Assembly (NCBI GenBank): GCA_033648345.1
Contig: GCA_033648345.1_4121.1
Strand: one strand, 5' to 3'
DNA: 64,000 nt
Source: a phage
The translations under genes and the position numbers were made by a program. Shown piece by piece: positions 4,093 to 58,972 of the stretch. Position 1 is the first letter of the stretch; each line of letters begins with the position of its first letter. The notes below the pieces were generated by a model. The model saw only the letters and a program-made list of their open reading frames with translations. It did no database searches and had not been told where the DNA came from.

Positions 4093-4201
4093 AATATTTC
4101 CCTTGTATGAGTTAATGTCATATACCAATATTTATCAGTACAAAATACATTTCGTTGCCATTAATAAATAAATGAAAGTTCACTACTAAAAGGGCTTAAC
4201 A

Positions 4202-4699
4202 ATGGCATTAAGATCAAAAGACTTCCTCTTCAAAAGAAAAACTAAAGATGGTTCATGGCAAGAATTTCCTGAATCAGATAGCTGGTATCCTGCTAACTTA
4301 GATTATCATTGGAACGAACAAACATTACCATTAGCTAGTGGCGGCTATTATGGTAGTACTACAGGATTACATACAATATCCTTTACCCTACGTAACTTCA
4401 TTGGTAGAATTTACGTACTCGCTACACTGGCAAGTAATCCATCTGACGATGATTGGTTCCCAATTAAATTTACCGAAAGCTGCAACTTCTATCTTGAATT
4501 TACTGATAATGTCATTCTTAACCCAAATGGCGGCGACCTTATTAGAGAACAAGGTACAACTGGTACATTCGCTGAAACCTTAACCGGAAACTTTACCTAT
4601 CTGAAAGTTGGTATTGACCGTGATTACATTAGCAAGTATCCATCTGATGTACAAAAAAGTTTAGCTGGTAAGTTAGAACAAATTTTAATTAACTACTAA
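4202..4699 (+). CDS. Hypothetical protein
   Basis: 165-aa ORF with AAAGGG RBS; no recognisable motif. Confidence 0.5.
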   Translation: MALRSKDFLFKRKTKDGSWQEFPESDSWYPANLDYHWNEQTLPLASGGYYGSTTGLHTISFTLRNFIGRIYVLATLASNPSDDDWFPIKFTESCNFYLEFTDNVILNPNGGDLIREQGTTGTFAETLTGNFTYLKVGIDRDYISKYPSDVQKSLAGKLEQILINY

Positions 4700-9884: not shown

Positions 9885-12173
9885 ATGAATCTTACCCAAT
9901 TATTCAAAAAAAGCGACGAACTGGCAACTTCTCTGGGTCATACCTTCTTGACTATTGACCATCTAAGTGCTACAGTACTGACAATCGATAGCATCAAAGC
10001 AGTATTTGAAGATATGAACATCGATGCAGACAACCTACACGGTCGTTTGATTGCATATCTGAAGAATACAACATTCCCACATGCACCTAAAAGTGCTGAT
10101 GGTGATGAAGCGAACCGCACATCACTTCTCGTGAACCGTGTAGTTCAGGAACTTTCTAAGAAATCAGTAATTGAGCAACTTAAACGTGATGATTTCTCAA
10201 TTGATGCTTATTTTGTACTGTTTGAGTGTTTGTCCTTCCCAAATACTGCACTAGAAGCAGCATTGCGTGAAGAGGGTATCACTTGTACTGAAGCAGCACG
10301 AACTCTACAGAAGCACGTAGAAGCAATCGACAACGGAATCAACCTTCAAAGCATTAGTGATGAGCCAACTGGGGAGAAAAAAGTGGCACAACAACAACCA
10401 TCGTCCAAACAAAAAGGTTTAGAAGATTACACCACTAACCTAACCGCACTTGCAAAAGAAGGTAAACTTGACCCAATGATTGGTCGCCAGAAAGAGCTTT
10501 CTGCACTGATTGAAACTCTGGCCCGTAAGACTAAGAAGAATGCTATCCTGACTGGTGAAGCTGGTGTTGGTAAAACTCAAATCATTGATGGTCTAGCACA
10601 GGCAATCGCTGATGGTGAAGTACCAGAGCATCTTAAAGATGTTGAAATTCTGTCTCTGAACGTAGGTGCACTGACTGCTGGTACTAAGTACCGTGGTGAG
10701 TTCGAAGAACGTATCGATAACCTACTAAAAGAACTGAAGAAACGTGAAAACACTATTGTGTTCATCGATGAAATCCATATTATGGTTGGTGCTGGTTCAG
10801 CAAGCAACGGTTCTATGGATATGAGCAACATGCTCAAACCTGCACTATCTCGTGGTGAGATTCGTGTAATCGGTGCAACAACTTACGATGAATATCGTAA
10901 AAACATCGAAAAAGATAGTGCACTAACTCGCCGTTTCATGAAAATTGATGTAGTTGAGCCAACAATTGATGAAACCCGTGCGATTGTGAATGGTTTGAAA
11001 TCTACTTATGAAACTTTCCATAACGTAGAGTTCAGTACTGAAGCAATGGATGCAGTTATTACACTAAGTGATAAGTTCCTGAAGAACAAACACTTCCCTG
11101 ACAAAGCAATCGACCTAATGGATGCGGCAGCAGCGAAAGTACGTTCTCGTGAAACTGATGATAACATCATCACTGTTGCACTGATTCAAGAAGTTGTTGC
11201 AGGTATCGCAAACCTAGATATTAATGTGGTTGCTTGCACTGAAAGTGAACGTATGCGTAATCTACCAGATGCACTCCGTTCTCGTGTATACGGTCAAGAA
11301 GAAGCAGTACAGAAACTGGTTGATAACGTGATGGTAGCTCGTGCTGGTCTGCGTGATAAATCAAGTGTTCAAGGTGCATTCATGTTTGTTGGTCCATCTG
11401 GTACTGGTAAAACTGAAATTACCAAAGCACTGGCTGATGCAACTGGTTCTGAACTGATTCGTTTCGATATGTCCGAGTTTTCACAGGAACATACTGTTGC
11501 TAAACTGATTGGTTCACCTCCAGGCTATGTTGGTCACGATTCTGGTAACGGTCTGCTACTCGACAAGATTGAGCAGTTCCCGAATGCAGTACTGTTGCTT
11601 GATGAAATCGAAAAAGCTGATCGTAAAGTACTACTAACCTTCCTACAGGTTCTGGACGAAGGACGTTTGACTGGTTCACAAGGTAAAACTGTTTACTTCA
11701 ATAACGTAACTGTTATTATGACGACTAACCTTGGTGCAGCAGATTCAACCAAGCGTAGTATTGGGATGAGCGGTAGTGATACAGCACAAGATAAAGCTAT
11801 TAAAGCATTCTTGCCACCTGAATTCATCAACCGTATCGATAGTATTGTGACATTCAAAGACCTAAGCAGCGAAGCGATTGACAGCATCATTGATAAGTTC
11901 ATGGGTAGTCTGAATGAACAAATCAAAGACCGCAAAGTTAAAGTTTCCCTGACTAAAGCGGCACGTGAGTGGTTGGCAACAAATGGTGTTAAAGTTGGGA
12001 TGGGTGCACGTCCAATGAAACGCACTATTGAGCAAAACATCCGTGTCCCACTAGCTAAAGAGATGTTGTGTGGTTCTCTGGTTAATGGTGGTAACGTAAC
12101 GTTTGATGTGATTGATGGTAAATTGGCTATCAAACCTAAACGAACTAAAGCAGTAGAAAAAGTTATTGCGTAA
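9885..12173 (+). CDS. clpA: ClpA-type ATP-dependent Clp protease ATP-binding subunit (N-domain plus two AAA+ modules)
   Basis: Near-colinear with E. coli ClpA from memory: two Walker A motifs (GEAGVGKTQ, GPSGTGKTE), GARPMKR sensor, candidate ClpP-docking tripeptide IGM; track start GTG 9861 replaced by ATG 9885 with AGGAGA RBS. Confidence 0.85.
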   Translation: MNLTQLFKKSDELATSLGHTFLTIDHLSATVLTIDSIKAVFEDMNIDADNLHGRLIAYLKNTTFPHAPKSADGDEANRTSLLVNRVVQELSKKSVIEQLKRDDFSIDAYFVLFECLSFPNTALEAALREEGITCTEAARTLQKHVEAIDNGINLQSISDEPTGEKKVAQQQPSSKQKGLEDYTTNLTALAKEGKLDPMIGRQKELSALIETLARKTKKNAILTGEAGVGKTQIIDGLAQAIADGEVPEHLKDVEILSLNVGALTAGTKYRGEFEERIDNLLKELKKRENTIVFIDEIHIMVGAGSASNGSMDMSNMLKPALSRGEIRVIGATTYDEYRKNIEKDSALTRRFMKIDVVEPTIDETRAIVNGLKSTYETFHNVEFSTEAMDAVITLSDKFLKNKHFPDKAIDLMDAAAAKVRSRETDDNIITVALIQEVVAGIANLDINVVACTESERMRNLPDALRSRVYGQEEAVQKLVDNVMVARAGLRDKSSVQGAFMFVGPSGTGKTEITKALADATGSELIRFDMSEFSQEHTVAKLIGSPPGYVGHDSGNGLLLDKIEQFPNAVLLLDEIEKADRKVLLTFLQVLDEGRLTGSQGKTVYFNNVTVIMTTNLGAADSTKRSIGMSGSDTAQDKAIKAFLPPEFINRIDSIVTFKDLSSEAIDSIIDKFMGSLNEQIKDRKVKVSLTKAAREWLATNGVKVGMGARPMKRTIEQNIRVPLAKEMLCGSLVNGGNVTFDVIDGKLAIKPKRTKAVEKVIA

Positions 12174-22178: not shown

Positions 22179-22226
22179 TTTTGGACTCCATATAATTCGT
22201 TCATTCATTTGATTTATTTATGATAT

Positions 22227-26722: not shown

Positions 26723-26759
26723 AAAGATTTCCTCATTATTATTTATAGTACTGAAATAT

Positions 26760-32749: not shown

Positions 32750-32794
32750 CTTTTTGATTCTCCATAAGAAGGGAACATTTGATGTATTTATACG

Positions 32795-45267: not shown

Positions 45268-45333
45268 CATTTTAAAAATATAAATATTTGTATGTTGAAG
45301 TACAGATATTTCAGTACTTAAAGGAGAGAACGA

Positions 45334-46472: not shown

Positions 46473-46505
46473 CAAATTTTTCAGTTCTATAAATAATATC
46501 ATACT
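46473..46505 (+). promoter_or_regulatory. Late promoter with exact T4-type TATAAATA box
   Basis: TATAAATA at 46488-46495, 45 nt upstream of the capsid ATG, inside a block shared with 43721-43751. Confidence 0.5.
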
Positions 46506-47715: not shown

Positions 47716-47738
47716 TAATAAAGAATTTAAATATACTA

Positions 47739-47768
47739 GGGACTCTTCGGAGTCCCTTTTCTTTTTTC
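47739..47768 (+). terminator. Intrinsic terminator after the capsid gene (UUCG tetraloop)
   Basis: GGGACUC-UUCG-GAGUCCC followed by a U-rich run. Confidence 0.65.
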
Positions 47769-47779
47769 AGAAAAAAAGC

Positions 47780-47808
47780 TTGACAAGTAGATTTTAATTA
47801 TATATAAT
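47780..47808 (+). promoter_or_regulatory. Consensus sigma70 promoter
   Basis: TTGACA (47780-47785), 17-nt spacer, TATAAT (47803-47808). Confidence 0.6.
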
Positions 47809-47843
47809 TACCACATACCAAAAATCACAAAGAGACAAATAAA

Positions 47844-48950
47844 ATGCCAAAAGTAAGTATCGACAAAGAAAAATTCATTGAAGAGATGAACAACAAGTAT
47901 GGAGCATATGGTGAATTTGATTTCAGCACTTTAGTATTCAAAGCCAGTAAGACAACAGTTAAATGTAATAAATGCGGAAAAGAAAATACTAAACCTGCAC
48001 TACGTCACATTTCATGTACATGTTCTTCATGTTATTCAAACATGTCACAGCGTTCGAACAACGAAAAATTTATCAGCACGGTAGAAACTAAATTTGGAAA
48101 AGATAAATTCAAATTTGATAAACTAAATTACATTAACGCTATAACAAAAGTAACCATACTCTGCACAGACGAAGAACATAACGATTACTTTGAAATTACA
48201 CCAAACAAATTTCTTACTGGTAAGGGATGTCCTATATGTAATAAAAATGAAGCATACAGTACTGAAGAATTCGTAGAAAAAGTAAAAGAAAATTATGGTG
48301 ATTCATTAGATTTAACTAACACAGTATATGTAAATCAAAAAACTAAAGTAACTGTGTATTGTAAAGCGGGTAACCATGAATGGACAGTTGATCCGAAAAC
48401 TTTACTTGTTGGTAAGACTGGTTGTGGTACATGCTCCGGTAAAGGTGGTCGCAGTACTGAACGTTTCATTGAACTGGTATCACCTATCCATAACCATAAG
48501 TATGATTATAGTTTGGTTGAATATACTATAAGCGAGAATTATGTTGATATTGTATGTCCAACTCATGGTGTTTTCTCCCAACAACCAAAAGCACATATGG
48601 CTGGTAAAGGATGCCCATCATGTGGTGAATATGGATATCAGCCATCAAAACCTGGATATTTCTATGTTCAAAAACTAACTAATAAAGATAAGACAGTGTA
48701 CAAGTATGGAATCACTGGTGATATGAAACGCCGTGTAAATGAGCAAAGTCGTCATTCTGGTTTTGAACACACAGTACTGATAGAACGTTACTTTGAAGAT
48801 GGAAATCAACCATTACTGTTGGAAAAGTTCATAAAGAAATACATTGAAAGTGGTGTTGTAAGTACTGAAGAGTTGCCATCAGGATTTACTGAAACTTTTG
48901 ATGCTAAGTATCTTGAAAGTGTTTTAGAAATTGTAAATACTTTTAAGTAA
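47844..48950 (+). CDS. Protein with tandem zinc-ribbon repeats plus C-terminal T5orf172 (GIY-YIG superfamily) domain
   Basis: Three to four ~60-aa repeats each ending GKGCPxC / GCGTC with paired Cys; C-terminal GYFYVQK...YKYGITGDMKRRVNE block matches the T5orf172 pattern. Confidence 0.6.
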   Translation: MPKVSIDKEKFIEEMNNKYGAYGEFDFSTLVFKASKTTVKCNKCGKENTKPALRHISCTCSSCYSNMSQRSNNEKFISTVETKFGKDKFKFDKLNYINAITKVTILCTDEEHNDYFEITPNKFLTGKGCPICNKNEAYSTEEFVEKVKENYGDSLDLTNTVYVNQKTKVTVYCKAGNHEWTVDPKTLLVGKTGCGTCSGKGGRSTERFIELVSPIHNHKYDYSLVEYTISENYVDIVCPTHGVFSQQPKAHMAGKGCPSCGEYGYQPSKPGYFYVQKLTNKDKTVYKYGITGDMKRRVNEQSRHSGFEHTVLIERYFEDGNQPLLLEKFIKKYIESGVVSTEELPSGFTETFDAKYLESVLEIVNTFK

Positions 48951-48973
48951 ACAACCATAAGGAGTTGACACGG

Positions 48974-49324
48974 ATGTTAACTGTATACATTTTTAAGAAA
49001 GAAGAGTACTTAAAGAGTCAGTACTCAAAAATTGAGATTAACGTTCCATACGGGACTTTAGTTGGTTATGATGAAGCTAGTGAAACTTTGTATTATAATG
49101 ATGATAGACTGGACTATAGTATTGATTCATTTATTGAAGACATACTTAATAGTAACACTGAAGATATGTTGTATGAAGAATACTTAGATAAGTACAAAGA
49201 ACGTATGTCAAAGTTACATGCTGATGCTCCAGTACTGAACATTTCAAAAACTCCTTCTGAATTCGAGCCACAAAACCCATTCCAACGCCTAATTGATGCT
49301 GGGGTAAATTTCCGAATTACTTGA
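48974..49324 (+). CDS. Hypothetical protein
   Basis: Track start TTG 48965; ATG 48974 with AAGGAG RBS; 116 aa. Confidence 0.45.
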   Translation: MLTVYIFKKEEYLKSQYSKIEINVPYGTLVGYDEASETLYYNDDRLDYSIDSFIEDILNSNTEDMLYEEYLDKYKERMSKLHADAPVLNISKTPSEFEPQNPFQRLIDAGVNFRIT

Positions 49325-49363
49325 TTAATAAATATCTTCATATTACTGATGGAGATATTTTCT

Positions 49364-49672
49364 ATGTCACAGATATGTTATGTTATAGTAAATGATGCAT
49401 GGCCTGATTATGTTAAGATAGGATTTACCAGTAAATCTGAAATGACAGAACGTTTAAGGACATATCAAACTGCTACACCTTTTAGAGATTTTGTGGTATA
49501 CCATGAAGTACACTTTGAAGATGCACGTTTAGCAGAGAAAGAAATTCACAAAAGACTAAAACAAATGAACGCAGTAAGGCAACCTAACACCGAGTGGTTC
49601 AAGATGCCTAAGAAGATAGCAGCGAACATCGTTGATTCTGTTCTTGACGATATGGAAAACGACTTGCTATAG
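49364..49672 (+). CDS. T5orf172 (GIY-YIG superfamily) domain protein
   Basis: CYVIVNDAWPDYVKIGFTS...ERLRTYQTATPF...EWFK pattern; ATG 49364 with GGAGA RBS preferred over 49349. Confidence 0.6.
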   Translation: MSQICYVIVNDAWPDYVKIGFTSKSEMTERLRTYQTATPFRDFVVYHEVHFEDARLAEKEIHKRLKQMNAVRQPNTEWFKMPKKIAANIVDSVLDDMENDLL

Positions 49673-49713
49673 TAATAAATATAGTATATATTAATCATTA
49701 AAGGGATTTATAC

Positions 49714-51426
49714 ATGAGCATAAGTTTTAATAACCCACTGGATACTATGACTAGTACTGGTGCTAATGGATCTTTAGAACTAATAGTGCTTGGTGGTACA
49801 CCAACTAATCCAAGACCTATTCGTTTTAATTCATCTTCTGTCATTTTACCAGTACAGGCATTGCCAGCAGGTGAGCAAGGTGCTATGGTATTTGATAGAA
49901 ATGAGTTGGTGTTAAAATACCACAACGGGACAAGTTGGATTGCAGTATACGATACTGATACAATTCTTGAACCAATCCGTATTTCACTCGATGAAGTGAA
50001 CCGTAAACTGAATTTAAAAGTTGAAACAGTAACATATAGTAGTAGTGCTGTTCCAAGTGCGAGCATTAGTGGTACGAATTTAAATATCGTATTCCCTACT
50101 CCATCAAGTAGCGGTAGTGGCCCAACAGGTCTTTACACTTCAATGAAGCCTGGTGCAATTACCCAGTACTCATTGACTTCTGGACAAACTGTTGCTAGTA
50201 TTCGTGAACAGATGTCTGGAGTAACTAATGGTCAAAGTGGTCGTAATGGTACACAAGGTTCTCCGTGGAAAACTTCTGATGGTTGGTGTTTTGCTGATGG
50301 AATGTGGTGGCAATGGGTTGGTGAAAATGGTACAATCACTAAACAAGTTCCAAATCTTAACCAAGAAGCATACTTGAAAGGCATTACCACATCAGGCGTA
50401 ACTAAAACTGATAGTGTGATTGCAAGTAGTGCATCAATTAGTGGTACTGCGATATCAATTGCTCAACTTCCACCGCACTCATTTAGTTTCAGTGGAACTA
50501 CTGGTGCTGCTGGTCGTCATGGTCATAGCCAAGCACTAAAAGGTATGGACAGAAGTGGTCTTAATGCGTTAACATCCAGTAACGACAACGGAATCCCAAC
50601 TGTAATTAATAACATTAACGAAGCACCTGATCACGTGCATAGTTTCAGTGGTTCTACGAATACTGTTGGTAGTGGTCAAGCACACAGCCACGGAATTAGC
50701 AATATTGACGTACCACACTTTAATGTGGCATACTTATATAACATTGCAGAGTCTAACGTTGCATTGAGTGAAAAAGTTGCAAACACCCGTTATGTACTGA
50801 AAACTGGTGATACAATGTCTGGTTCATTGACTATTGCTAACAGTGCAACAATTCGTTCGAATGATACTTCATTAGTACTTTACTTCCGTAACGCTACTAA
50901 TGGTGAACGTGCAGCAATTTATCATAATTCATCTAACAATACATTACGTTTGAGAAGTAATGGTGGTTCTGAAGTTTCTATCAACTCTTCAGGTGTACTA
51001 ACTTCCCCATCGTTAGTTGTTAGTTCTAACTCTGCAACAGTTTCTGGTAAAAACATTGTACGTTCAGTTAACGGTACTGCGGCAGATGCAAGTGGTAATG
51101 TAACTATATCTACCACAACAACTTCTGCGTCATTGACACAAAATGGCTGGCATAAAGATAACAATACTGGTATGATTACCCAGTGGGGATACTTAACTGT
51201 TGGTGACGACTCTTATGTTACTGTAAACTTACCAGTTGCATATCCTAATGCTTGTTTAAATCTACAAGTAACTGGTAGAGTATCCAGAGCACCAGGTAAC
51301 CGTACTTCATTTGCTGGTCATGGTAACATTTTAAGTAACTCACAAATTGCTGTTGGTGCAGCTAACCCTGGTAGTGACGGTGACCACAATGGGCTAGGAG
51401 TGTACTGGACAACAATTGGTTATTAA
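49714..51426 (+). CDS. Tail fiber protein with His-rich HxH motifs
   Basis: 570 aa, Ser/Thr/Gly-rich; HGHSQ and HVHSFSGSTNTVGSGQAHSHGISN resemble metal-binding HxH motifs of T4-type fiber tips; AAAGGGA RBS. Confidence 0.6.
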   Translation: MSISFNNPLDTMTSTGANGSLELIVLGGTPTNPRPIRFNSSSVILPVQALPAGEQGAMVFDRNELVLKYHNGTSWIAVYDTDTILEPIRISLDEVNRKLNLKVETVTYSSSAVPSASISGTNLNIVFPTPSSSGSGPTGLYTSMKPGAITQYSLTSGQTVASIREQMSGVTNGQSGRNGTQGSPWKTSDGWCFADGMWWQWVGENGTITKQVPNLNQEAYLKGITTSGVTKTDSVIASSASISGTAISIAQLPPHSFSFSGTTGAAGRHGHSQALKGMDRSGLNALTSSNDNGIPTVINNINEAPDHVHSFSGSTNTVGSGQAHSHGISNIDVPHFNVAYLYNIAESNVALSEKVANTRYVLKTGDTMSGSLTIANSATIRSNDTSLVLYFRNATNGERAAIYHNSSNNTLRLRSNGGSEVSINSSGVLTSPSLVVSSNSATVSGKNIVRSVNGTAADASGNVTISTTTTSASLTQNGWHKDNNTGMITQWGYLTVGDDSYVTVNLPVAYPNACLNLQVTGRVSRAPGNRTSFAGHGNILSNSQIAVGAANPGSDGDHNGLGVYWTTIGY

Positions 51427-51433
51427 AAAATAT

Positions 51434-51462
51434 TGAGACAACTTTTAAAGTAGTGATACAAT
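51434..51462 (+). promoter_or_regulatory. Promoter of the early family
   Basis: TGAGAC, 17-nt spacer ending TGA, TACAAT; upstream context AAAATATTGAGACAA mirrors 55375-55390. Confidence 0.4.
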
Positions 51463-51523
51463 GTAGTCATCTTACAGCGGTTGTGAGATGACATTTTTTC
51501 AAAACACATGGAGAAGCAAACAA

Positions 51524-51829
51524 ATGGCAAAAGCTAAAAAAGAAGTTAAAGTTGAAATTCGTGACCTAAATGATGAACAACGTAAACGTCTAGGTGATGC
51601 ACTAAACAACGCAGTAGTACAACTTACTTTTATTGACGACACCAAAGCATCCTATGCAGATTTCATTAGTTCCATCTCTGATGAACTAGGTATTGATGCA
51701 TCCGATATCAAACAAGCCGCTCAACGTATCTACAAAGGCGATTACTTTGATAAACAAAACAAACTCGATAACATCGAAACTATCCTAAGTGTTACTAACA
51801 ATTTACCACAAGCAGATGACGATTACTAA
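51524..51829 (+). CDS. Hypothetical protein
   Basis: ATG 51524 with GGAGAAG RBS (track start 51488 has none); followed by a hairpin/T-run. Confidence 0.45.
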   Translation: MAKAKKEVKVEIRDLNDEQRKRLGDALNNAVVQLTFIDDTKASYADFISSISDELGIDASDIKQAAQRIYKGDYFDKQNKLDNIETILSVTNNLPQADDDY

Positions 51830-51911
51830 TAAGTACTAAAAACTAAACTTTATAGCCTCCAATGAATGGGGGCTTTATTTTTAACTTAATAAACGTAAAG
51901 GAATACAAACG

Positions 51912-54900
51912 ATGTATATCGATGCTTATATGGAACGTAAACGTACTGGTGATATTTTGCACGTAGCAGAACGTAAAAACGGTAAACGTATTCTACGTCA
52001 GTTGGACCCAGTATATGAATATTATGTTGAATCTCCTACTGGTGAACACAAAACAATTTATGGAACCAACGCAAAGCATTTGGAGTTTGAAACTCAATCA
52101 CAGATGAATAAAAGCGTTGAGCAACATAAAAATGAAGGTCTACGTATTTTTGAAAGTGATTGCAACATTACCTTCAAAACGTTGGCTAGAGAATACATGG
52201 GTAAAGGTTCGCCGGATTTGAACGTAGCATTTTTCGATATCGAAACCGACTTCCATAAGAAGTTTGGTTATGCTCCACCATCAGATCCATTCAACCGTGT
52301 AACTGCAATTTCTCTATATCAATCATGGACTGGTAAGGATTATGTACTTACTTTGCCACCAACTGATATGGAAATGTACGAAGCACAAGATATTGTTCGA
52401 CAGTTAAACGAAGAAACTAACGACCCTAACAGTACTGTCATCCTTTATACGGATGAGAAAGAAATGTTTATGGAGTTCTTTAGTCTAATCGATGACTCTG
52501 ATGTAATTTCAGGTTGGAACAGTGAATTCTTTGATATTCCATATATGGTAAACCGTACCAAGAAAATCTTCAACGAAGCAACTACTGCTCGTTGGTGTTT
52601 GTGGAATAAAAAACCAAATGCTCGTGAAGCTGATAACTTTGGTAAAACTGTAGTAACATATGATCTTATTGGTCGCGTACACTTAGACTATCTTGCTCTT
52701 TATAAGAAACATGCTGGTCAAGTTGAACAGTCGTACAAACTAGATTATATTGCTGAAAAAGTAACTAAAGAAAACAAAGTATCCTATGAAGGTTCATTGG
52801 ATAAACTATACCGTGAAGATTACATTACATTCTTGCGTTATTCTAAGCAGGATAGTATTCTTCTAAAGAAAATTGATGCTAAATGTGACTTTATCAACCT
52901 GCACAACCGTCTTGCTCATAAAGAATGTGTACTAATTAGTACTACAATGGGTTCGGTTGCACTAATCGACACTGCTATCATCAACCTTGCTCACAGTCGC
53001 GGTGAAGTTGTTTTTAACAAAGCACCGAAGGATGATTTTGAGTTAGATCCAGAGATGGAGTACTATGGTGAAGAAGGTGATGAAGAAGATGAGAAAATCA
53101 GTGCAAAAGCTGCTGGTGCATGGGTTCAAGATCCAGTTCTTGGCCTTGTTAGCGATTTGGGATGTACAGACTTTAACTCATTGTATCCAACTGTACTACG
53201 TACACTTGGCATGAGTACTGAATGTATTCTTGGACAACTTCGTCAAGACTACACTGATGCATATCTTGCTGCTAAAGTACAAGAGCAAAAAGCTAAATCC
53301 AAATCTAAAGCGTTTGAACCTGATTGGACCGCTGCATGGCATGGTTTATTTGCTGCTGTAGAATTTACAATGGTTCATGAAAAATCTGACAAAACTTTGA
53401 TTGTTGATTTAGAAGATGGTAGTTCGTTCAATGCAACTGGTAAAGAATTGTATGATATTATCTTTGCTGAAGACAGTACTATTGTACTAAGTGCTAACGG
53501 AACACTTTTTGATAAGTCTAAGTATGGTGTAATTCCAGATATTCTTACTCAATGGTATTCTGAGCGTAAAGCACAACAAAAAATGGTAATCGACTACAAA
53601 CACATGTACAGTGATGGGTGGGAATTCAATGGTTCTGAGAAGGTTGAACCTTTGCTATCTAACTACACAAGTGGTACAATGTTCCGTACAAACTTACATG
53701 ACAATGATCCTGTTTACCTATTACGTATTGCTATTGGTAAAGGTCAATGGGAAGAAGTTGCAAAACTCATTGTGGAAAATGGTTTAGTACTGAAAGATGG
53801 TCGTATTTTCTGTGCAACGGAAGATAAGAATTACTTCAAACAGCAAAGTGCATTCTGGAAACAGAACCAGCAAATTCGTAAGATTCTTCTAAACAGTCTA
53901 TATGGTGCACTATTGAACAAAGGTTCACGTTTCTTTGATAAGCGTTTAGGTCAGTCCGTTACCTTAACTGGTCGTTCTATGACTAAACATATGGCAAGCC
54001 GTATCAATGAAATCACTACTGGTGTTTATAATCACCAAGGTGGCTCTGTAATTTACGGTGATACTGACTCCGTTTACTTCAGTGTAACTCATTACCTGAA
54101 AGAACAAGGTATTCCATATAATCTTTCGAAAGAAGAAATCGTTGACATGTATATCAAAATCGGTGATGAAGTTGGTGAATCATTCCCTTCATTCATGAAC
54201 GAAATGTTCAATACTGGTATTGAGAAAGGTAAGATTGTTGGTGCAGACCTAGAGATGGTCGGTTCCCGTGGTCTATTCCTGAAGAAAAAGCGTTATGCAA
54301 TTCTCAAGTACTGGGAAGATGGTTTCCGTAAAGATGTTGATGGAAAGCCTGGTGAAATTAAAGCGATGGGTCTTGAAATTAAACGTTCAGATACGCCAAA
54401 ATACATCCAGAACTTCCTAGAAGAGACTCTAATTGCATTGCTGGTGGGTGAGTCTGAAGCTCAACTTAAACAGCGTGTACGTGACTTTAAAGAGGTATTT
54501 AAAGACATGCCTGTACACGAAAAGGGTTCACCGAAAACTGTTAAGAACTATACCAACTTAGAAGCAGAATATGAAGTTTCTGGTAAATGTAAAGTTGGTC
54601 ACGTATTAGCAGGTATTCAATGGAACCGTCTACGTGAAGTATATGATGACAAAACTGTACCTGAAGTAACTGACGGTACAAAAGTAATTGTATGTAACTT
54701 AAAAGATAACCCGATGGGTATCAAAGCAGTAGGTTATCCAATTGACTGTGTGGAATATCTACCTGAATGGTTCTTAGAACTACCATTTGATACAGAGAAA
54801 ATGGAAGAAATAGTTCTAACTAAAAAATTAGAAAACATTTTTGGTATTCTGGATATGGATATTGGTATTCATGAGAAAAGTACAGCAGCCGTTAATAACG

Positions 54901-54917
54901 GATTCTTCACCTGGTAA
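51912..54917 (+). CDS. DNA polymerase, family B (T4 gp43-like)
   Basis: Exo I FFDIETD, motif A DFNSLYP, motif B KILLNSLYGAL, motif C YGDTDS; 1001 aa; AAAGGAA RBS. Confidence 0.9.
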   Translation: MYIDAYMERKRTGDILHVAERKNGKRILRQLDPVYEYYVESPTGEHKTIYGTNAKHLEFETQSQMNKSVEQHKNEGLRIFESDCNITFKTLAREYMGKGSPDLNVAFFDIETDFHKKFGYAPPSDPFNRVTAISLYQSWTGKDYVLTLPPTDMEMYEAQDIVRQLNEETNDPNSTVILYTDEKEMFMEFFSLIDDSDVISGWNSEFFDIPYMVNRTKKIFNEATTARWCLWNKKPNAREADNFGKTVVTYDLIGRVHLDYLALYKKHAGQVEQSYKLDYIAEKVTKENKVSYEGSLDKLYREDYITFLRYSKQDSILLKKIDAKCDFINLHNRLAHKECVLISTTMGSVALIDTAIINLAHSRGEVVFNKAPKDDFELDPEMEYYGEEGDEEDEKISAKAAGAWVQDPVLGLVSDLGCTDFNSLYPTVLRTLGMSTECILGQLRQDYTDAYLAAKVQEQKAKSKSKAFEPDWTAAWHGLFAAVEFTMVHEKSDKTLIVDLEDGSSFNATGKELYDIIFAEDSTIVLSANGTLFDKSKYGVIPDILTQWYSERKAQQKMVIDYKHMYSDGWEFNGSEKVEPLLSNYTSGTMFRTNLHDNDPVYLLRIAIGKGQWEEVAKLIVENGLVLKDGRIFCATEDKNYFKQQSAFWKQNQQIRKILLNSLYGALLNKGSRFFDKRLGQSVTLTGRSMTKHMASRINEITTGVYNHQGGSVIYGDTDSVYFSVTHYLKEQGIPYNLSKEEIVDMYIKIGDEVGESFPSFMNEMFNTGIEKGKIVGADLEMVGSRGLFLKKKRYAILKYWEDGFRKDVDGKPGEIKAMGLEIKRSDTPKYIQNFLEETLIALLVGESEAQLKQRVRDFKEVFKDMPVHEKGSPKTVKNYTNLEAEYEVSGKCKVGHVLAGIQWNRLREVYDDKTVPEVTDGTKVIVCNLKDNPMGIKAVGYPIDCVEYLPEWFLELPFDTEKMEEIVLTKKLENIFGILDMDIGIHEKSTAAVNNGFFTW

Positions 54918-54927
54918 GGAAAATATT

Positions 54928-55068
54928 ATGATTATTGCAGACGAAACTAAACTAAAATATGACGAAGTAAATGACGTATTCTCTGATGAATCACTAGCAC
55001 TGTCTGAGGACAGTGTTAACGAGGCGTGGGAACAGTACGTTTTATGGAGTGCATCCCAAGGAGAGTAA
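54928..55068 (+). CDS. Small acidic protein (46 aa)
   Basis: ATG with AAGGAAA RBS directly after the polymerase stop; Asp/Glu-rich; coding status uncertain. Confidence 0.35.
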   Translation: MIIADETKLKYDEVNDVFSDESLALSEDSVNEAWEQYVLWSASQGE

Positions 55069-55069
55069 T

Positions 55070-55372
55070 ATGGAAAATATATATAAGCGTGTTGGTGCAG
55101 TACTGGAAGATAGTACTATCGTAAATTCAGTACTTGCATACAATAATGATGATGAAGTTGTTCTAATGTCTGCTGGTTTCACCAGAACTGGCTCTGTTGA
55201 AATTGACGGTGAGATTGTTGACGTCTATTCTATTGAAAAGAAACGCAAAGTTGTCATTGTTGAAGATGTTAACACGTTAAAAGACTTAGAACATCTACGT
55301 TACAAATTCAACATTGGTGCAGGTGCAAACGCTGATAAGCCGTACCTTAAACGTTGGAACACAAAATACTGA
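55070..55372 (+). CDS. Hypothetical protein
   Basis: ATG 55070 with AAGGAGAG RBS (track start 55013 overlaps the upstream ORF); 100 aa. Confidence 0.45.
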   Translation: MENIYKRVGAVLEDSTIVNSVLAYNNDDEVVLMSAGFTRTGSVEIDGEIVDVYSIEKKRKVVIVEDVNTLKDLEHLRYKFNIGAGANADKPYLKRWNTKY

Positions 55373-55380
55373 TAAAAAAT

Positions 55381-55409
55381 TGAGACAAGCATCATTCACG
55401 AGATATAAT
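55381..55409 (+). promoter_or_regulatory. Promoter of the early family
   Basis: TGAGAC, 17-nt spacer, TATAAT (55404-55409). Confidence 0.4.
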
Positions 55410-55476
55410 GGTGCTTGTAGTAATCTGAAGCATACAAAAACATTTTTGATTAACAAATAAAACGGAGAATTATATA

Positions 55477-56208
55477 ATGGATCTACGCAACGTACTACGT
55501 GACCTAGTTAACACTACCAACGGCATCGACTTTTCTTGTATCGCAGTTAGCAGTGAAGACCGTGGTGATGGACAGCGTGTTTACATGGAAGCATACACCG
55601 ATGACCGCACCCTAGTTATGCGTGCTCACACTAAAGAAGACGTACCAGAAGTTCAAGGTCGTTTTGGTCTTGGTAACCTAGGTCTTCTACAGGGTCTAAT
55701 GTCTCTAAAAACTTATAGTACTGAAGGAACTACTATCACTTCTAATTTGAAAGATGGTGCAGTTAAGAGCCTAGCATTCAAAGCAGAAGATGCAAGCACT
55801 ACTTTCATGGTTCAACCAGAAAAACTAATTCCAGCCCAGCCTCGTTTCCATGAACAACCATATGACGTACAGGTTACACCTAGTGCAGCTAAAGTTCAGG
55901 AACTAAAAAGTTTCTCTGGTGTGTTTAAATCTTTCAGTTCTCTAGTAACTCCATACACTGAAGGTGATACTCTTTACTTCCACGTTGGTGAGAAGAATAA
56001 AAGTAACCACGTTGGTGCACTAGCATTCTCTAAAACTGAAGGTGAACTAGGTCTTGGTTTTGGTTATAACATTGACCGTGTTCTACAAGCTCTATCCCGC
56101 GTTTCTAACGCAGAATCTGTTACCCTTGGTATTACCAAAACTGGTATGCTAAACGTAACTCTAGACACTGGTATTGCGGTATACAAGATTTACGTAACAG
56201 GTTGCTAA
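55477..56208 (+). CDS. Hypothetical protein; weak resemblance to a sliding clamp (gp45-like), unverified
   Basis: 243 aa with GGAGA RBS; N-terminal LVNTTNGI segment loosely recalls the T4 gp45 N-terminus; followed by hairpin GGGGAAC-ATGGA-GTTCCCC. Confidence 0.5.
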   Translation: MDLRNVLRDLVNTTNGIDFSCIAVSSEDRGDGQRVYMEAYTDDRTLVMRAHTKEDVPEVQGRFGLGNLGLLQGLMSLKTYSTEGTTITSNLKDGAVKSLAFKAEDASTTFMVQPEKLIPAQPRFHEQPYDVQVTPSAAKVQELKSFSGVFKSFSSLVTPYTEGDTLYFHVGEKNKSNHVGALAFSKTEGELGLGFGYNIDRVLQALSRVSNAESVTLGITKTGMLNVTLDTGIAVYKIYVTGC

Positions 56209-56274
56209 TATAAATAATGGGGAACATGGAGTTCCCCAAATTTTTGATTTAAAAATAAGTAAAGGAAGACAAAA

Positions 56275-56481
56275 ATGCCATTATATACATATCGTTGTGA
56301 AAAAGAAGAATGTAAACACAGTTTAGAAAAGATTGTAAAAATTGCCAATCGTGAAGAACCTCATGATTGTCCTCAATGTAATGGTGAGAAGACTATGAAG
56401 TTGGAAGTTTTTACCCCAGGTGATAAAGGTGCAAATCTTTATTTCCGTGGTAAATGGTTTGCAAACACTGGAGGTTACTGA
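56275..56481 (+). CDS. FmdB-type zinc-ribbon protein
   Basis: MPLYTYRCEKEECKH...CPQCNG matches the MP(I/L)YEYRC..C...CP.CG zinc-ribbon pattern; AAAGGAAG RBS. Confidence 0.55.
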   Translation: MPLYTYRCEKEECKHSLEKIVKIANREEPHDCPQCNGEKTMKLEVFTPGDKGANLYFRGKWFANTGGY

Positions 56482-56482
56482 T

Positions 56483-56785
56483 ATGAAAATTAAAATGATT
56501 AACGATTATGTACTGGTTCGTCAAATTGAAGCACAGAATAAAAGTACTGGTGGTATTATCCTAGGAAACGTTGAACCACCATGTGTTGGTATGGTGATTT
56601 CAGTTGGTGAAGGTAAAGTACTACCTAATGGGCAAATTGCAGAACATAATATTTGTGTTGGTGATATGGTTGTATTCGGTCGTTCATCACTAAACACTCC
56701 TATCACTGAAGATCTTGGTGGTGGTGAAGACACATATTATGTGATGAAAATTGAAGAAATTTTTGGTAAGAAATCAAATGGCTAA
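56483..56785 (+). CDS. groES: Co-chaperonin GroES (Cpn10) homolog
   Basis: MKIKMINDYVLVRQIEAQNKSTGGIILG...VGDMVVFG colinear with bacterial GroES including the mobile-loop region; GGAGG RBS; 100 aa. Confidence 0.75.
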   Translation: MKIKMINDYVLVRQIEAQNKSTGGIILGNVEPPCVGMVISVGEGKVLPNGQIAEHNICVGDMVVFGRSSLNTPITEDLGGGEDTYYVMKIEEIFGKKSNG

Positions 56786-57503
56786 AAAAAGGTTTATTCC
56801 TTTCTGGATGGTCCCCGCTCATTGGGGACTTTCTGGTAAAGCGAAAGAGATTGCGAAAGCATACTACTATAACGATGATTATGAAGCTGATATGTTAGTT
56901 GCAGAACTTACATATCTAACACCATATGAAGTTGATGTAGCACAGTTGGATATCAAAAAGAAATACAATGTATTAGAAACTCTTGATTATCTAATAGCAC
57001 AGGCAGATGTACAATTGAAGTATTCCAAGATTACCCGTGATGAGTATAATGTAAAATTACTTGATGCTAAATTAAGTACTGGTGCAATTACTCAAAAAGA
57101 GTATGATATGGAAGTAATCGAACTAATGCCTGATGGTGATGACAAACGTCTTAAAGCTATCGAGTTTGCATATCGTTATGAAGAGATTACACAACAAGAG
57201 TATTCAAAGGAAATCTTTACTTTACGTAAAGAACCTTGGATTGATTTGGATGTAGTACTTAATCCAGAAACAAATGAAGTTGAATTTGTTTTTGATTATA
57301 ATGAATACTTTTGGAAAAAGTTAAAAGCGGAAGGTCATCCAGGTAATGACGAAGAAGAAATTATTGACAACTTCGTTAGAGACATGGGGCGTAAACTAGC
57401 TACGGATGATTTCAGTGATGATTATGACGTAAAGCTAGTGAATGCGAACGAAGGGTTAGAGAATCTACCTGGTTTACCTGAAGGGTTCCGTTCATACAAA
57501 TAA
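56778..57503 (+). CDS. Hypothetical protein
   Basis: ATG overlapping the GroES stop; 241 aa; followed by a terminator. Confidence 0.5.
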   Translation: MAKKRFIPFWMVPAHWGLSGKAKEIAKAYYYNDDYEADMLVAELTYLTPYEVDVAQLDIKKKYNVLETLDYLIAQADVQLKYSKITRDEYNVKLLDAKLSTGAITQKEYDMEVIELMPDGDDKRLKAIEFAYRYEEITQQEYSKEIFTLRKEPWIDLDVVLNPETNEVEFVFDYNEYFWKKLKAEGHPGNDEEEIIDNFVRDMGRKLATDDFSDDYDVKLVNANEGLENLPGLPEGFRSYK

Positions 57504-57504
57504 A

Positions 57505-57537
57505 AAAAGGAGAGCAAAAGCTCTCCTTTTCTTTTAT
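57505..57537. terminator. Bidirectional intrinsic terminator
   Basis: GGAGAGC-AAAA-GCTCTCC (57509-57526) with flanking A and T runs. Confidence 0.65.
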
Positions 57538-57547
57538 CTTTAATTTA

Positions 57548-58237
57548 TTAAACCATCGCTGGGATGAATTTGAATAGTTTGATACCGAAGTCACCAGCAG
57601 CATCAGCAGCTTGGGAACGTAGAACAACTTCAGTAACACCATCTTTAGCGAGTAGTGGAACTGCGGTTAGGTCATCAATTAGTAGACGGCCTTCTTCGAT
57701 CTCAGTACTTGGAACGCCTTGGAAAGATTGAATATCTTTATCAAATACGTTAGCACGTTCAACGAGGAAAGTAACTACTGAAGCACTAGCGATATCAACA
57801 GACCCAACACTTAGGATACCGTCAGCAGCGTTGGTAAAACCAGTAACTGCAAATGGCTCAGCGTCGTTGCCAGCGATTTCGGAAGTAGCGATGATAACTG
57901 CACGTTGTTGAACAACATCAACGATACGTTTAACGTTAGTTTGTGCAGCGTAAGCAGCGTTATAATCAGCTTCTAGAGTTGCTGCTTCAAATGGAGTACC
58001 ATCGACACGGATGATACCTTTTTCGTTTAGATATGCAACGATTTCATCAGCTACGTCAGTGTTTAGGAAACGTTGTAGACCAGCGAAAGAACCAACTGCA
58101 CCAGTAACACGCACGTTAACATTACCAATTTTACTAATTGCGATAGATGCTAGGGCGTTTTTACCACAGAAGTAACCTAGAATTTTATCAAAGGAATAAC
58201 CATTGATACGTTCAAAAGAAGTATTAGTATTAGACAT
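57548..58237 (-). CDS. Putative virion structural protein (paralog A)
   Basis: 229 aa, Ala/Val/Thr/Gly-rich; shares QQRAV...TS...ER.NVFDK blocks with the adjacent gene; AGGGGGA RBS. Confidence 0.55.
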   Translation of the reverse strand: MSNTNTSFERINGYSFDKILGYFCGKNALASIAISKIGNVNVRVTGAVGSFAGLQRFLNTDVADEIVAYLNEKGIIRVDGTPFEAATLEADYNAAYAAQTNVKRIVDVVQQRAVIIATSEIAGNDAEPFAVTGFTNAADGILSVGSVDIASASVVTFLVERANVFDKDIQSFQGVPSTEIEEGRLLIDDLTAVPLLAKDGVTEVVLRSQAADAAGDFGIKLFKFIPAMV

Positions 58238-58252
58238 ATTGTAGTCCCCCTA

Positions 58253-58852
58253 TTATAGTTGTACTGGTAGAGCAGCACGAACTTTAATTGCAACAGCGTC
58301 AGCGGCAGCAGCATCACCAACACCATCAGTACCTAGAGCAACATAAGATTTGGTACGGAAGAATTTAGCTTGTGCAATAGCTTTAGCTAGTTCAACAGTT
58401 GGATCAACTGGAACAGAGTAAGCAGCACCTGGGCGAACTTCTTGTTTGTCAAATACGTCTTGACGTTCACAGATGAAGGTTAGAGCAACAGAACCAGCAC
58501 CACCTGTAACATCAGCACCACTAGTACCAAACGCGATTACGTTACCACCAACGGTTTTAAAGTCAGCAGGGATAACAACAGCGGTGTCTAGAGCTAGTAC
58601 GGAAGTAGTAACTAGTACTGCACGTTGTTGTAGTAGTTGGGTAATCATGAATTGGTTGTATTGAGCATTGCTGATTGCAGTTTGTAGTGCTTCATCTTGA
58701 ATTTCGGAACCGTCAGAAGTAACAGCGGTAGTACCAACTTCAACATCTGCTGGTAGATCAACAACGATGGTTACGAAACCATTGTTACCACCCCAGTATT
58801 CACGAGCAGTAGCAGACATACCATAGTTACGGTTAAAAGAATTAAGACTCAT
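58253..58852 (-). CDS. Putative virion structural protein (paralog B)
   Basis: 199 aa paralog of the downstream gene; AAGGAG RBS; late-promoter boxes upstream. Confidence 0.55.
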   Translation of the reverse strand: MSLNSFNRNYGMSATAREYWGGNNGFVTIVVDLPADVEVGTTAVTSDGSEIQDEALQTAISNAQYNQFMITQLLQQRAVLVTTSVLALDTAVVIPADFKTVGGNVIAFGTSGADVTGGAGSVALTFICERQDVFDKQEVRPGAAYSVPVDPTVELAKAIAQAKFFRTKSYVALGTDGVGDAAAADAVAIKVRAALPVQL

Positions 58853-58894: not shown

Positions 58895-58972
58895 ATATTA
58901 TTTATCAAAAAATATAAACCACATTTAAATTTAAGGCAATATTCCCTGATCTCTATGATATTATTTATCAAA
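58895..58972 (-). promoter_or_regulatory. Two tandem late-promoter-like boxes (minus-strand TTTGATAAATAATAT)
   Basis: Identical 15-mers at 58895-58909 and 58958-58972 (plus coordinates), 63 bp apart; proximal copy ~43 nt upstream of the ATG at 58852. Confidence 0.4.

Follow-up and report, generated by a model that had tools for sequence, protein, structure and literature searches.

A GroES/Cpn10 co-chaperonin homolog and its conserved gene neighbours in a RaK2/121Q-like jumbo coliphage

We analyzed a stretch of phage DNA of 64,000 nucleotides, here called the window, which shares 99.7% identity with sequenced jumbo coliphages of the RaK2/121Q type, and found that positions 56275–57503 hold three closely packed genes on the plus strand, encoding a zinc-ribbon protein, a GroES/Cpn10 homolog and a protein of 241 aa. 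We consider it likely that this region is a three-gene operon, placed between two terminator-like hairpins and behind a late-promoter-like motif, the middle gene of which encodes a genuine Cpn10/GroES that would most likely act as a heptameric lid on host GroEL late in infection. The GroES assignment is correct and also already known, since the gene has been annotated and published for this phage group. The present analysis adds the late-promoter-like motif found ahead of the GroES operon and of capsid and baseplate genes, together with the scale and the RNase H neighbourhood of phrog_13349, the large uncharacterised phage family to which the 241-aa protein belongs.

Results

Gene layout at the GroES locus

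The first of the three genes (56275..56481, plus strand) encodes a 68-aa Zn_ribbon_8 (FmdB-type) protein and has the Shine-Dalgarno sequence AAGGAAG upstream. It is followed by the gene for the 100-aa GroES homolog (56483..56785, plus strand), with the junction of zinc-ribbon stop and GroES start reading TGA-T-ATG, and with the GroES Shine-Dalgarno sequence (GGAGG, 8 nt upstream) located within the zinc-ribbon gene. The ATG of the third gene (56778..57503, plus strand; 241 aa) overlaps the GroES stop in a shared stretch of 8 nt, ATGGCTAA, and an overlap of stop and start had been described in an earlier note on this DNA. This third gene has a weak Shine-Dalgarno sequence only, and its translation therefore probably depends on translation of GroES. 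The GC contents of the three genes (35.0–35.3%) are close to that of the window (36.6%) and thus give no sign of recent capture; recent horizontal acquisition of the three genes as a module was rejected on this ground and because the nearest of the compared cellular GroES proteins are only ~30–42% identical.

Downstream of the three genes, a terminator scan revealed a bidirectional terminator-like hairpin (57502..57533), its stem comprising 11 pairs on one strand and 14 on the other with a T run after each, at the boundary to two convergent, paralogous virion-protein genes (57548..58852, minus strand). These encode proteins of 229 aa (57548–58237) and 199 aa (58253–58852), both matching phrog_9326, and the virion proteomes of RaK2, CBB, GAP32 and phAPEC6 contain their homologs in abundance. 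Such phrog_9326 genes were found at all sampled loci having GroES together with a member of the 241-aa family, and at none of 84 loci having the family gene without GroES.

The earlier note had also pointed to a ClpA homolog as a further part of a phage proteostasis toolkit. The window indeed contains a ClpA-like ATPase gene (9885..12173, plus strand), although 44 kb upstream of the GroES operon and thus only as context outside it. The product has two AAA+ modules (Pfam AAA, AAA_lid_9, AAA_2 and ClpB_D2-small), two Walker A motifs and the sequence S-I-G-M at residue 634 of the open reading frame as counted from GTG, and the gene is annotated in fEgEco12 as ‘ATP-dependent Clp protease ATP-binding subunit’.

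The 100-aa protein is a GroES/Cpn10 homolog

Sequence and predicted fold both identify the 100-aa protein as a bona fide Cpn10/GroES, which is far nearer to cellular GroES than to T4 gp31. The HMM search that the earlier note had named as a check on this identity gave a match to Cpn10 (PF00166) with E = 1.1e-16 and 61.1 bits, about 40 bits over the cut-off of 21.1, in which residues 2–96 align with positions 1–92 of the 93 in the profile. The protein also matched phrog_3188, ‘co-chaperonin GroES’ (E = 1e-26), and its sequence matches in the PDB were all Cpn10/GroES or plastid Cpn20-type proteins, while BLASTP against E. coli GroES gave 37% identity over residues 1–67 only (E = 1e-14). An AlphaFold2 model reached a pLDDT of 77.5, with a value of 52 over the mobile-loop block of residues 21–30, as is consistent with a flexible loop. 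When this model was searched with Foldseek, solved GroES chains from GroEL–GroES complexes matched it with TM scores of 0.62–0.71 and E-values down to 6.3e-7. Ranks 1–33 among PDB chains were GroES/Cpn10 or plastid Cpn20-type chains, and T4 gp31 (1G31) followed at rank 34 with 17% identity, in agreement with the proposal that this protein is unlike gp31.

Compared with E. coli GroES (1AON, 5OPX; 97 aa), the phage protein has the full-length profile, the modelled beta-barrel and the roof hairpin in common. The mobile loop S-T-G23-G24-I25-I26-L27-G28 matches E. coli S-A-G-G-I-V-L-T column by column, so that the G-G-I-[IV]-L motif stands at equal positions, and both the TGGIILG and the VGD..VFG motifs singled out in the earlier note proved real, as they align with E. 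coli AGGIVLT and, for the complete strand VGDMVVFG, with VGDIVIFN. Among 23 homologs of the lineage, G24 and I25 are invariant, with G23 and L27 nearly so, and the strands at the subunit interface show the conservation of functional GroES proteins. The phage protein differs from the E. coli protein in having a mobile loop shorter by two residues, and from cellular GroES in general by an invariant P33 and a nearly invariant C34 (E-P-P-C) after the loop, by an extra EDLGGGED segment found in the Escherichia and Klebsiella phage branch, and by being encoded in a phage operon without a GroEL partner. The EDLGGGED insert lies in the C-terminal third, which is divergent.

The comparison with T4 gp31 concerned the two features that set gp31 apart, i.e. 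its longer mobile loop and its lack of a roof hairpin, which gives an enlarged cage. By both, the phage protein is ordinary: in an alignment, its loop is 5 residues shorter than that of gp31, and the predicted roof hairpin is present, its columns showing no deletion, unlike those of T4 gp31 and CBB gp131. The features on account of which T4 cannot do without gp31 are thus absent, and nothing in the structure of the phage protein would keep host GroES from doing the same work. A likeness to gp31 and to RB49 CocO, the latter compared by literature description, would instead lie in the proposed role, a phage-made lid that fits the GroEL of the host, and in the setting, a large myovirus related to T4 and having a gp23-like capsid protein.

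Distribution of the phage GroES and its likely chaperonin partner

The GroES gene was found in 81 phage records, mostly of RaK2-like jumbo phages and including 34 Escherichia phage records, with a syntenic context in every relative examined. The proteins of the RaK2-like group (121Q gp615, PBECO4, RaK2 ORF104, CBB_268, GAP32 and Yen9-04 g261) are orthologs sharing the same neighbours, and no difference of substance separates them from the protein studied here, the window thus representing one more isolate of the group. Identities were 100% to fEgEco12, WPEC3 and Turkey3, 92% to 121Q, 76% to RaK2 and 53% to CBB. A second GroES paralog, more bacterial-like and having no roof hairpin, is found in CBB, GAP32 and in Yersinia, Erwinia and Serratia phages, and is absent from the Escherichia and Klebsiella members.

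The earlier note had also suggested looking for a GroEL homolog elsewhere in the genome, and for this lineage the outcome was negative. A tblastn search with E. coli GroEL, using a query sequence that matched a Salmonella record at 99.2%, returned 252 phage records; the genera listed for these, of which the smallest has 7 records, do not include Escherichia. By this search against phage records, no GroESL-type arrangement, with GroEL in the genome or beside GroES, was seen for the group, and GroES and GroEL occurred together only in the distant Vibrio phage 2.275.O. As GroEL was not found in the Escherichia members, partnership with host GroEL is a sensible inference, and most likely, by analogy, the phage protein caps host GroEL as RB49 CocO and T4 gp31 do.

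A late-promoter-like motif ahead of the operon

The motif TATAAATA is found at 56209..56216 (plus strand), at a distance of 58 nt before the start codon of the zinc-ribbon gene. All five exact sites in the window lie 17–58 nt upstream of the start of a gene on the same strand, these being the capsid-protein gene, a scaffold-like gene, two baseplate genes and the GroES operon. For the core ATAAATA, 17 of the 20 occurrences were located at most 80 nt upstream of a same-strand start, compared to a median of about 11% for 20 other 7-mers of the same composition. The exact motif was not over-represented over the window as a whole (5 found versus 7.5 expected), and a T4-type promoter had at first been dropped for this lack of enrichment, then revived on the non-random positions; the argument for a promoter hence rests on position and not on count. 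Another ATAAATA motif is found at 58899–58905, by the convergent virion-protein gene pair.

The motif before the operon is kept in 121Q and phAPEC6, and the same motif has been predicted as late promoter of CBB and GAP32 in a study that also identified a gp55-like sigma factor (PMC5259590). In the published CBB promoter list, however, the clamp gene is preceded by a middle-type promoter only and CBB_266–269 by no late motif, so that late timing may be a trait of the coliphage branch alone. Directly after the motif, the terminator scan gave a terminator-like hairpin following the sliding-clamp gene (56218..56238, plus strand), composed as TGGGGAAC-loop-GTTCCCCA and then AATTTTTG, which is kept in 121Q, phAPEC6 and RaK2 with changes mainly in the loop. 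We infer that this hairpin ends the clamp transcripts, while late transcripts may start inside it.

In a different use of the protein, phage GroES would not help folding but manipulate the host, either by countering a chaperone-linked defence or by competing with the GroES of the host, so as to block GroEL or turn it to other ends. This we regard as very improbable. Nothing speaks directly for it, although the ClpA-like protein and, in relatives, ClpP proteins indicate a general investment in host-like proteostasis parts, and the roof-less second paralog of some relatives indicates functional diversification. The protein has, however, kept the hydrophobic tripeptide, roof hairpin and interface strands of a working GroES, the late-promoter-like motif is one common to structural genes and not to early host-takeover genes, and the phage co-chaperonins that have been characterised, gp31 and CocO, all act productively with GroEL.

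The zinc-ribbon protein

The gene preceding GroES encodes, as had been noted earlier, an FmdB-like zinc-ribbon protein, which matched Zn_ribbon_8 (PF09723) with E = 6.4e-11 and 42.5 bits against a cut-off of 34.4, and phrog_13665 with E = 2e-39. It resembles FmdB/Zn_ribbon_8 in this profile match and in four conserved Cys residues arranged in two pairs, a predicted zinc ribbon; it differs in its first pair, which is C-x4-C and not C-x2-C, and in a GDKG...G..Y tail specific to the phage clade (phrog_13665). Residues C8, C13, C32 and C35 together with this C-terminal tail are invariant in five zinc-ribbon homologs. The term ‘regulatory protein’ is an inherited name of the FmdB family and denotes a putative role.

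The 241-aa protein belongs to a large phage family

The 241-aa protein, which the earlier note had called unknown, has remained so with regards to domains and fold, but not with regards to family. No Pfam match was obtained at E ≤ 1 other than a chance one to DMAP_binding, and an AlphaFold2 model (pLDDT 82.5), having eight helices and a small C-terminal domain of a beta-hairpin and a helix, gave no meaningful match in fold searches of PDB and BFVD. Three I-T-x-x-E-Y repeats are found at residues 85, 104 and 137; these had suggested a SHOCT domain, for which no match was reported. In PHROG, the protein instead matched phrog_13349 over its full length (E = 7e-111), and all 41 distant relatives tested matched the same PHROG. 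The family comprises at least 655 cluster representatives (E ≤ 1e-3) and occurs in at least 585 IMG/VR stretches.

Outside the RaK2-like clade, the family gene lies just upstream of RNase H. No GroES was found at the 84 sampled loci mentioned above, with flanks of at most 5 kb and for one contig only 1 kb. In 80 of them the family gene is placed between a QueE-like gene (65 of the 80) and RNase H (71 of the 80), and the gene of PA5oct is likewise placed between these two. A GroES HMM of our own, built from 7 sequences and from which very divergent co-chaperonins could escape, gave no match in 80 IMG/VR loci. Proteins of 142 and 148 aa upstream of the family gene in locus L008 were considered as divergent GroES and discarded, as they lack Cpn10, PHROG or convincing Pfam matches and look unlike GroES. 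Homology of the family to T4 gp59, gp33 or DsbA, encoded near rnh, was also rejected, with hhalign probabilities of 0.1–0.2%; in T4 these genes lie downstream of rnh and not upstream.

PHROG and RefSeq label the 241-aa protein as a virion structural protein, and it could then be a virion component folded by the GroES encoded upstream, which we find unlikely. The RaK2 homolog, gp105, was detected in purified virions by MS/MS (5 peptides, 21.7% coverage), and the late-promoter-like motif on the operon agrees with such a role. The virion proteomes of CBB (55 proteins), GAP32 (49) and phAPEC6 (62) nevertheless do not list the homolog, so that one of the four virion proteomes checked supports the label. 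The list for phAPEC6, the closest coliphage, has gp210, gp211 and even the clamp gp215c but not gp212c, and in PA5oct an ESI-MS/MS note is attached to the neighbour but not to the homolog itself. [quoted passage not shown] With regards to annotation, the label of phrog_13349 is weakly founded, and the gene is a widespread core gene by RNase H in many large myoviruses.

Are the three genes a dedicated module?

The earlier note had described a chaperone cluster. Of this, the gene order, the GroES and zinc-ribbon identities and the overlap were supported, while a functional unit was so at most in part, in view of the 84 GroES-less loci and of relatives lacking the zinc ribbon beside GroES. The corresponding explanation, a dedicated module in which the 241-aa protein, and perhaps the zinc ribbon, would be an accessory or adaptor of phage GroES and host GroEL, or else an obligate client, is in our opinion quite unlikely. 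Gene order gives it some backing: GroES is followed directly by the family gene with an overlap of 8 or 4 nt in 121Q, in RaK2, in CBB and in three relatives from metagenomes, where the identity of the 241-aa protein falls to as low as 34%. In Vibrio phage 2.275.O the two genes are likewise neighbours, separated by 36 nt. The weak Shine-Dalgarno sequence of the 241-aa gene and the presence of the zinc ribbon in most GroES-linked relatives point the same way. The family is, however, far larger than the GroES-linked clade, as its size and the GroES-less loci indicate; similarly short overlaps occur with unrelated upstream genes in L008 and PA5oct, and overlaps are common in the genome, with 7 same-strand pairs counted in the fEgEco12 annotation. 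The zinc ribbon is absent beside GroES in Vibrio phage 2.275.O and in locus L097. As the adjacency of GroES and the 241-aa gene is limited to one clade, it may be plain inherited gene order. The zinc-ribbon and 241-aa proteins are conserved neighbours and, as our best guess, not obligatory parts of chaperonin function.

A narrower proposal would confine the pairing to the RaK2-like clade, where phage GroES and the helical-repeat phrog_13349 protein would act together. The latter would be a new type of accessory factor or substrate adaptor for the chaperonin, passing particular virion proteins to a host GroEL that carries the phage lid. It draws on the translational coupling, on the adjacency kept down to 34% identity and on the presence of both phrog_9326 genes at every locus with the pair. 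We mention it as a speculation to which we give little credence.

Discussion

In the reading that we prefer, the phage GroES would most likely assemble as a heptameric lid and dock on host GroEL through the G-G-I-I-L mobile loop. It would thereby provide co-chaperonin capacity, or take over from that already there, in the late phase of infection, when much virion protein must fold, in principle as RB49 CocO and T4 gp31 do, but with ordinary GroES architecture in place of an enlarged cage. Candidate clients are a gp23-like capsid protein, the capsid protein of RaK2 being gp23-like, or the abundant virion proteins encoded next door. A role in capsid-protein folding, as also raised in the earlier note, would follow from the analogy to T4 and RB49 together with the late-promoter-like motif. 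The preferred reading has precedents in the literature, as phage co-chaperonins can replace GroES (Keppel 2002, as summarised in a citing paper), and Iyer et al. have proposed that jumbo phages use their Hsp10 to recruit host Hsp60 to the assembly of virions.

The GroES annotation is already present in many GenBank and RefSeq records, among them those of 121Q, PBECO4, fEgEco12, CBB and GAP32, and GroES of this phage group is discussed in PMC5259590, PMC5852040 and PMC7824862. The RaK2 paper gives ORF104 as a GroS homolog in a supplementary table only, and the fEgEco12 genome paper has no mention of GroES or chaperones; in the literature, we found no published functional test for any phage GroES of the RaK2-like clade. 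As a discovery the finding is hence of little weight, with some value as a reminder case, whereas the ATAAATA late-promoter-like motif provides a simple way to assign late genes in such genomes. GroES is among the listed genes that separate the RaK2/XacN1 group from T4, and throughout a clade of giant enterobacterial phages an ordinary-looking GroES has been retained without a GroEL, even though the host makes GroES.

Organization of the GroES operon and its source phage

The three genes of the operon (window 56275-57503) were all called on the plus strand with near-zero spacing, encoding a zinc-ribbon protein of 68 aa (56275-56481), a GroES protein of 100 aa (56483-56785) and a protein of 241 aa (56778-57503). 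Upstream lies a sliding-clamp homolog (55477-56208), and downstream, on the minus strand, two paralogous virion-protein genes (57548-58237 and 58253-58852). The zinc-ribbon stop and GroES start are arranged as TGA-T-ATG, and the gene overlap proposed in an earlier note was found as 8 nt shared by the GroES stop and the start of the 241-aa gene (ATGGCTAA). Good Shine-Dalgarno sequences precede the zinc-ribbon (AAGGAAG) and GroES (GGAGG) genes, and because the 241-aa gene has only AAGAAA, its translation would probably depend on coupling to that of GroES.

The operon region shared 99.7% identity with the Escherichia phages WPEC3, WPEC5 and fEgEco12, and about 84% with 121Q, PBECO4 and phAPEC6; these are all RaK2-like jumbo myoviruses, with genomes of about 350-384 kb. 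Records of related phages call the product of the first gene a zinc-ribbon or CxxC-CxxC-SSSS protein, that of the second co-chaperonin GroES and that of the third hypothetical or 'virion structural'. The GroES operon is an already annotated and discussed part of a known phage group: a supplementary table of the RaK2 paper identifies ORF104 as a homolog of the 10-kDa chaperonin GroS, the CBB paper describes two GroES-like proteins, CBB_131 and CBB_268, with an analogy to T4/RB49 (PMC5259590), and the XacN1 paper places GroES among the orthologs setting the jumbo-phage group apart from T4 (PMC5852040). No functional study of this GroES was found in the literature. The earlier observation was correct, and its identification of GroES, zinc ribbon and overlapping genes is supported.

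Relative to fEgEco12, window coordinates shift by about 700 nt on the way from the capsid gene to GroES (window 46540-56483; fEgEco12 204741-213976), which indicates an indel in this interval. At 47844-48950 the window has a 368-aa open reading frame where fEgEco12 has two small annotated genes, one a GIY-YIG nuclease.

The 100-aa protein is of the GroES type

The 100-aa protein scored 61.1 bits against Pfam Cpn10 (cut-off 21.1), covering profile positions 1-92 of 93, matched the PHROG family 'co-chaperonin GroES' (E=1e-26) and gave only Cpn10/GroES or plastid Cpn20-type proteins in a PDB sequence search. BLASTP showed 37% identity to E. coli GroES across residues 1-67. In a multiple alignment that included E. 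coli GroES and T4 gp31, the mobile loop S-T-G-G-I-I-L-G aligned with S-A-G-G-I-V-L-T of E. coli. The phage loop is two residues shorter than that of E. coli GroES and the roof hairpin is intact, unlike in both gp31 and the second GroES paralog of phage CBB, where this hairpin is absent. Among 23 GroES homologs of the lineage, G24, I25 and P33 were invariant and G23, L27 and C34 nearly so. The AlphaFold2 model had a mean pLDDT of 77.5, with a value of 52 for residues 21-30, as would be expected for a flexible loop. Each of the best 33 Foldseek matches of this model in the PDB was to a chain of the GroES/Cpn10 or plastid Cpn20 type (TM 0.62-0.71), with T4 gp31 following at rank 34 (17% identity). 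The profile, PHROG and PDB matches, the alignment and the model therefore identify a GroES-type rather than a gp31-type protein, as had been claimed earlier, with both the Cpn10 match and the mobile loop bearing this out.

The second paralog of CBB, gp131 (3408-3689 of the fetched CBB locus), is more bacterial-like (MNIRP..., KSAGGILLT) and has an 8-residue deletion at the roof hairpin. It was found in CBB, GAP32 and relatives infecting Yersinia, Erwinia and Serratia, with no match in RaK2-like phages of Escherichia or Klebsiella.

Genes accompanying GroES

The 241-aa protein, for which no Pfam family was matched, belongs to phrog_13349, labeled 'virion structural protein'. The sole proteome behind this label is that of RaK2, in which the homolog gp105 was detected in virions with 5 peptides (21.7% coverage). 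Homologs are missing from the published virion proteomes of CBB (55 proteins), GAP32 (49 proteins) and phAPEC6 (62 proteins), the last being the closest coliphage with data. The phAPEC6 list includes the neighbours gp210 and gp211, as well as the clamp gp215c, but lacks the homolog gp212c along with gp213c and gp214c. The PA5oct homolog (228734-229345) has no mass-spectrometry note, and the adjacent exonuclease has one. In RefSeq, the name 'virion structural protein' seems to have been propagated from a single proteome. [quoted passage not shown] Kinship of phrog_13349 with T4 gp59, gp33 or DsbA was rejected, these being unrelated.

Searched with a profile (E<=1e-3), 1.84 billion cluster representatives yielded at least 655 members of phrog_13349 with listed lengths of 124-349 aa, and a pattern scan of IMG/VR gave at least 585 confirmed stretches. 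In none of 80 IMG/VR loci did the flanks of the family gene, up to 5 kb long, contain GroES; a gene for an RNase H-type 5'-3' exonuclease lay just 3' of the family gene in 71 of them, and a QueE-like radical-SAM gene, often accompanied by GTP cyclohydrolase I (FolE) and a phosphoribosyltransferase, lay 5' in 65. PA5oct has the same order. In the metagenomic locus L008, polymerase and clamp genes are followed by two small unrelated genes and then by the family gene, which again overlaps its upstream neighbour by 8 nt and precedes RNase H. Within the RaK2-like clade GroES stays next to the family gene even where the family protein is as little as 34% identical (relative locus L097), and the adjacency reaches Vibrio phage 2.275.O. 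Given its absence from the 80 loci and the other order in PA5oct and L008, adjacency to GroES is a feature specific to RaK2-like phages. The gene order and overlap of the 'chaperone cluster' in the earlier note are confirmed. There is at best weak support for the three genes working together as a single chaperone machine, 84 sampled phrog_13349 loci having no GroES in flanks of up to 5 kb. As a separate observation, phrog_13349 lies between 7-deazaguanine-pathway genes and RNase H in many large environmental myoviruses (L015-L094, L008-L011, PA5oct).

A zinc-ribbon gene ahead of GroES, also proposed earlier, was confirmed by a match to Pfam Zn_ribbon_8 above threshold. Its four cysteines and the C-terminal GDKG...G..Y tail were invariant in five homologs, and it accompanies GroES in 121Q, RaK2, CBB and metagenomic locus L014, being absent beside GroES in Vibrio phage 2.275.O and L097. 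In another relative locus, L096, the stretch directly 5' of GroES (about 3890-4000) encodes a zinc ribbon (…FRCVEEGCGNEEDKIVKISEREAPKECPKCKGN…) that was not called as a gene, and the GroES call there begins with 27 extra N-terminal residues that are probably erroneous.

The paralogous minus-strand genes convergent to the operon belong to phrog_9326, homologs of which the RaK2 authors proposed as tail-tube candidates; in published virion proteomes they are covered to as much as 91% (CBB) and 70% (phAPEC6). They occurred in every sampled locus with GroES adjoining phrog_13349 and in none of 84 others. Since only one clade shows this association, it may reflect a gene order passed on by descent and not a functional link.

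A ClpA-like ATPase (9885-12173, plus strand), with two AAA+ modules, a ClpB_D2-small domain and two Walker A motifs, is encoded 44 kb from the operon. It has an S-I-G-M stretch that would correspond in position to the ClpP-docking loop of ClpA and may be such a loop. A 3333-aa open reading frame (12207-22208, minus strand), convergent to this gene, has ATAAATA 6 nt before its start. ClpP homologs have been reported for CBB, GAP32 and RaK2, and a review also notes host-like protein-quality-control parts in jumbo phages (PMC7824862). With ClpA-like protein, GroES and reported ClpP, the phage group thus carries several host-like quality-control parts; to this extent the 'proteostasis toolkit' of the earlier note holds, but no further link joins the ClpA-like gene to the distant GroES operon.

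Transcription signals

Two terminator-like hairpins, one just after the clamp gene (56218-56238) and a bidirectional one (57502-57533), bracket the three operon genes. Directly before the first, TATAAATA (56209-56216, plus strand) corresponds to the T4 late-promoter consensus. This exact 8-mer was not over-represented in the window (5 found, 7.5 expected), and all five sites sit 17-58 nt 5' of a same-strand gene start, the genes being those for the major capsid protein, a scaffold-like protein, two baseplate proteins and the GroES operon. Of the 20 occurrences of the core ATAAATA (including 45280-45286, 46489-46495, 49675-49681 and 56210-56216 on the plus strand, and 58899-58905, 32785-32791 and 26740-26746 on the minus strand), 17 had a same-strand gene start, in most cases that of a structural gene, at most 80 nt downstream, compared with a median of about 11% for 20 other 7-mers of identical composition; it behaves as a strand-specific promoter-like motif. 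ATAAATA also precedes structural genes in CBB and GAP32 as a predicted late promoter, along with a gp55-like sigma factor (PMC5259590), and fEgEco12, in the stretch matching the window, has a gene annotated as a putative sigma factor.

Both TATAAATA and the first hairpin are kept in 121Q and phAPEC6, and RaK2 has TATAAGTA with a hairpin. In CBB a phosphoesterase gene immediately precedes the zinc-ribbon gene, and the only nearby entry in the CBB promoter list is a middle-type promoter in front of the clamp (PMC5259590). From these signals, we read the operon as a probable late transcription unit in the coliphage branch, the start site of which would fall within the hairpin ending the clamp transcript. 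The window also has TGAGACA-N16-TATAAT (55381-55409, plus strand) 68 nt 5' of the clamp gene, resembling the CBB 'middle' promoter TGAAACG-N-TATAAT found before clamp and other DNA-synthesis genes (PMC5259590).

Host GroEL as the likely partner

For the partner of the phage GroES, 50,697 phage records were searched by tblastn using an E. coli GroEL query, which matched a Salmonella record at 99.2%. Matches were found in 252 records, and Escherichia was absent from the genera listed, the smallest of which had 7 records, with window-type GroES present in 34 Escherichia phage records. The Klebsiella matches among those listed were phages of roughly 255 kb that are not RaK2-like. Within the wider group, GroEL and clade-type GroES were seen together only in the distant relative Vibrio phage 2.275.O, having a GroEL 69% identical to that of E. 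coli (MG592671.1 206909-208471); it lies about 137 kb from the clade-type GroES (4001-4285 of the fetched locus, L012).

Since Escherichia was absent from the genera listed for GroEL, the phage GroES, if it is a co-chaperonin, must use host GroEL. Such use of host GroEL by jumbo-phage Hsp10 was proposed earlier by Iyer et al. (PMC7824862), and it is cited in the literature as the established mode of T4 gp31 and RB49 CocO. The most likely mechanism, on the sequence evidence, is that the operon would provide a late-expressed GroES-type lid capping the GroEL of the host.
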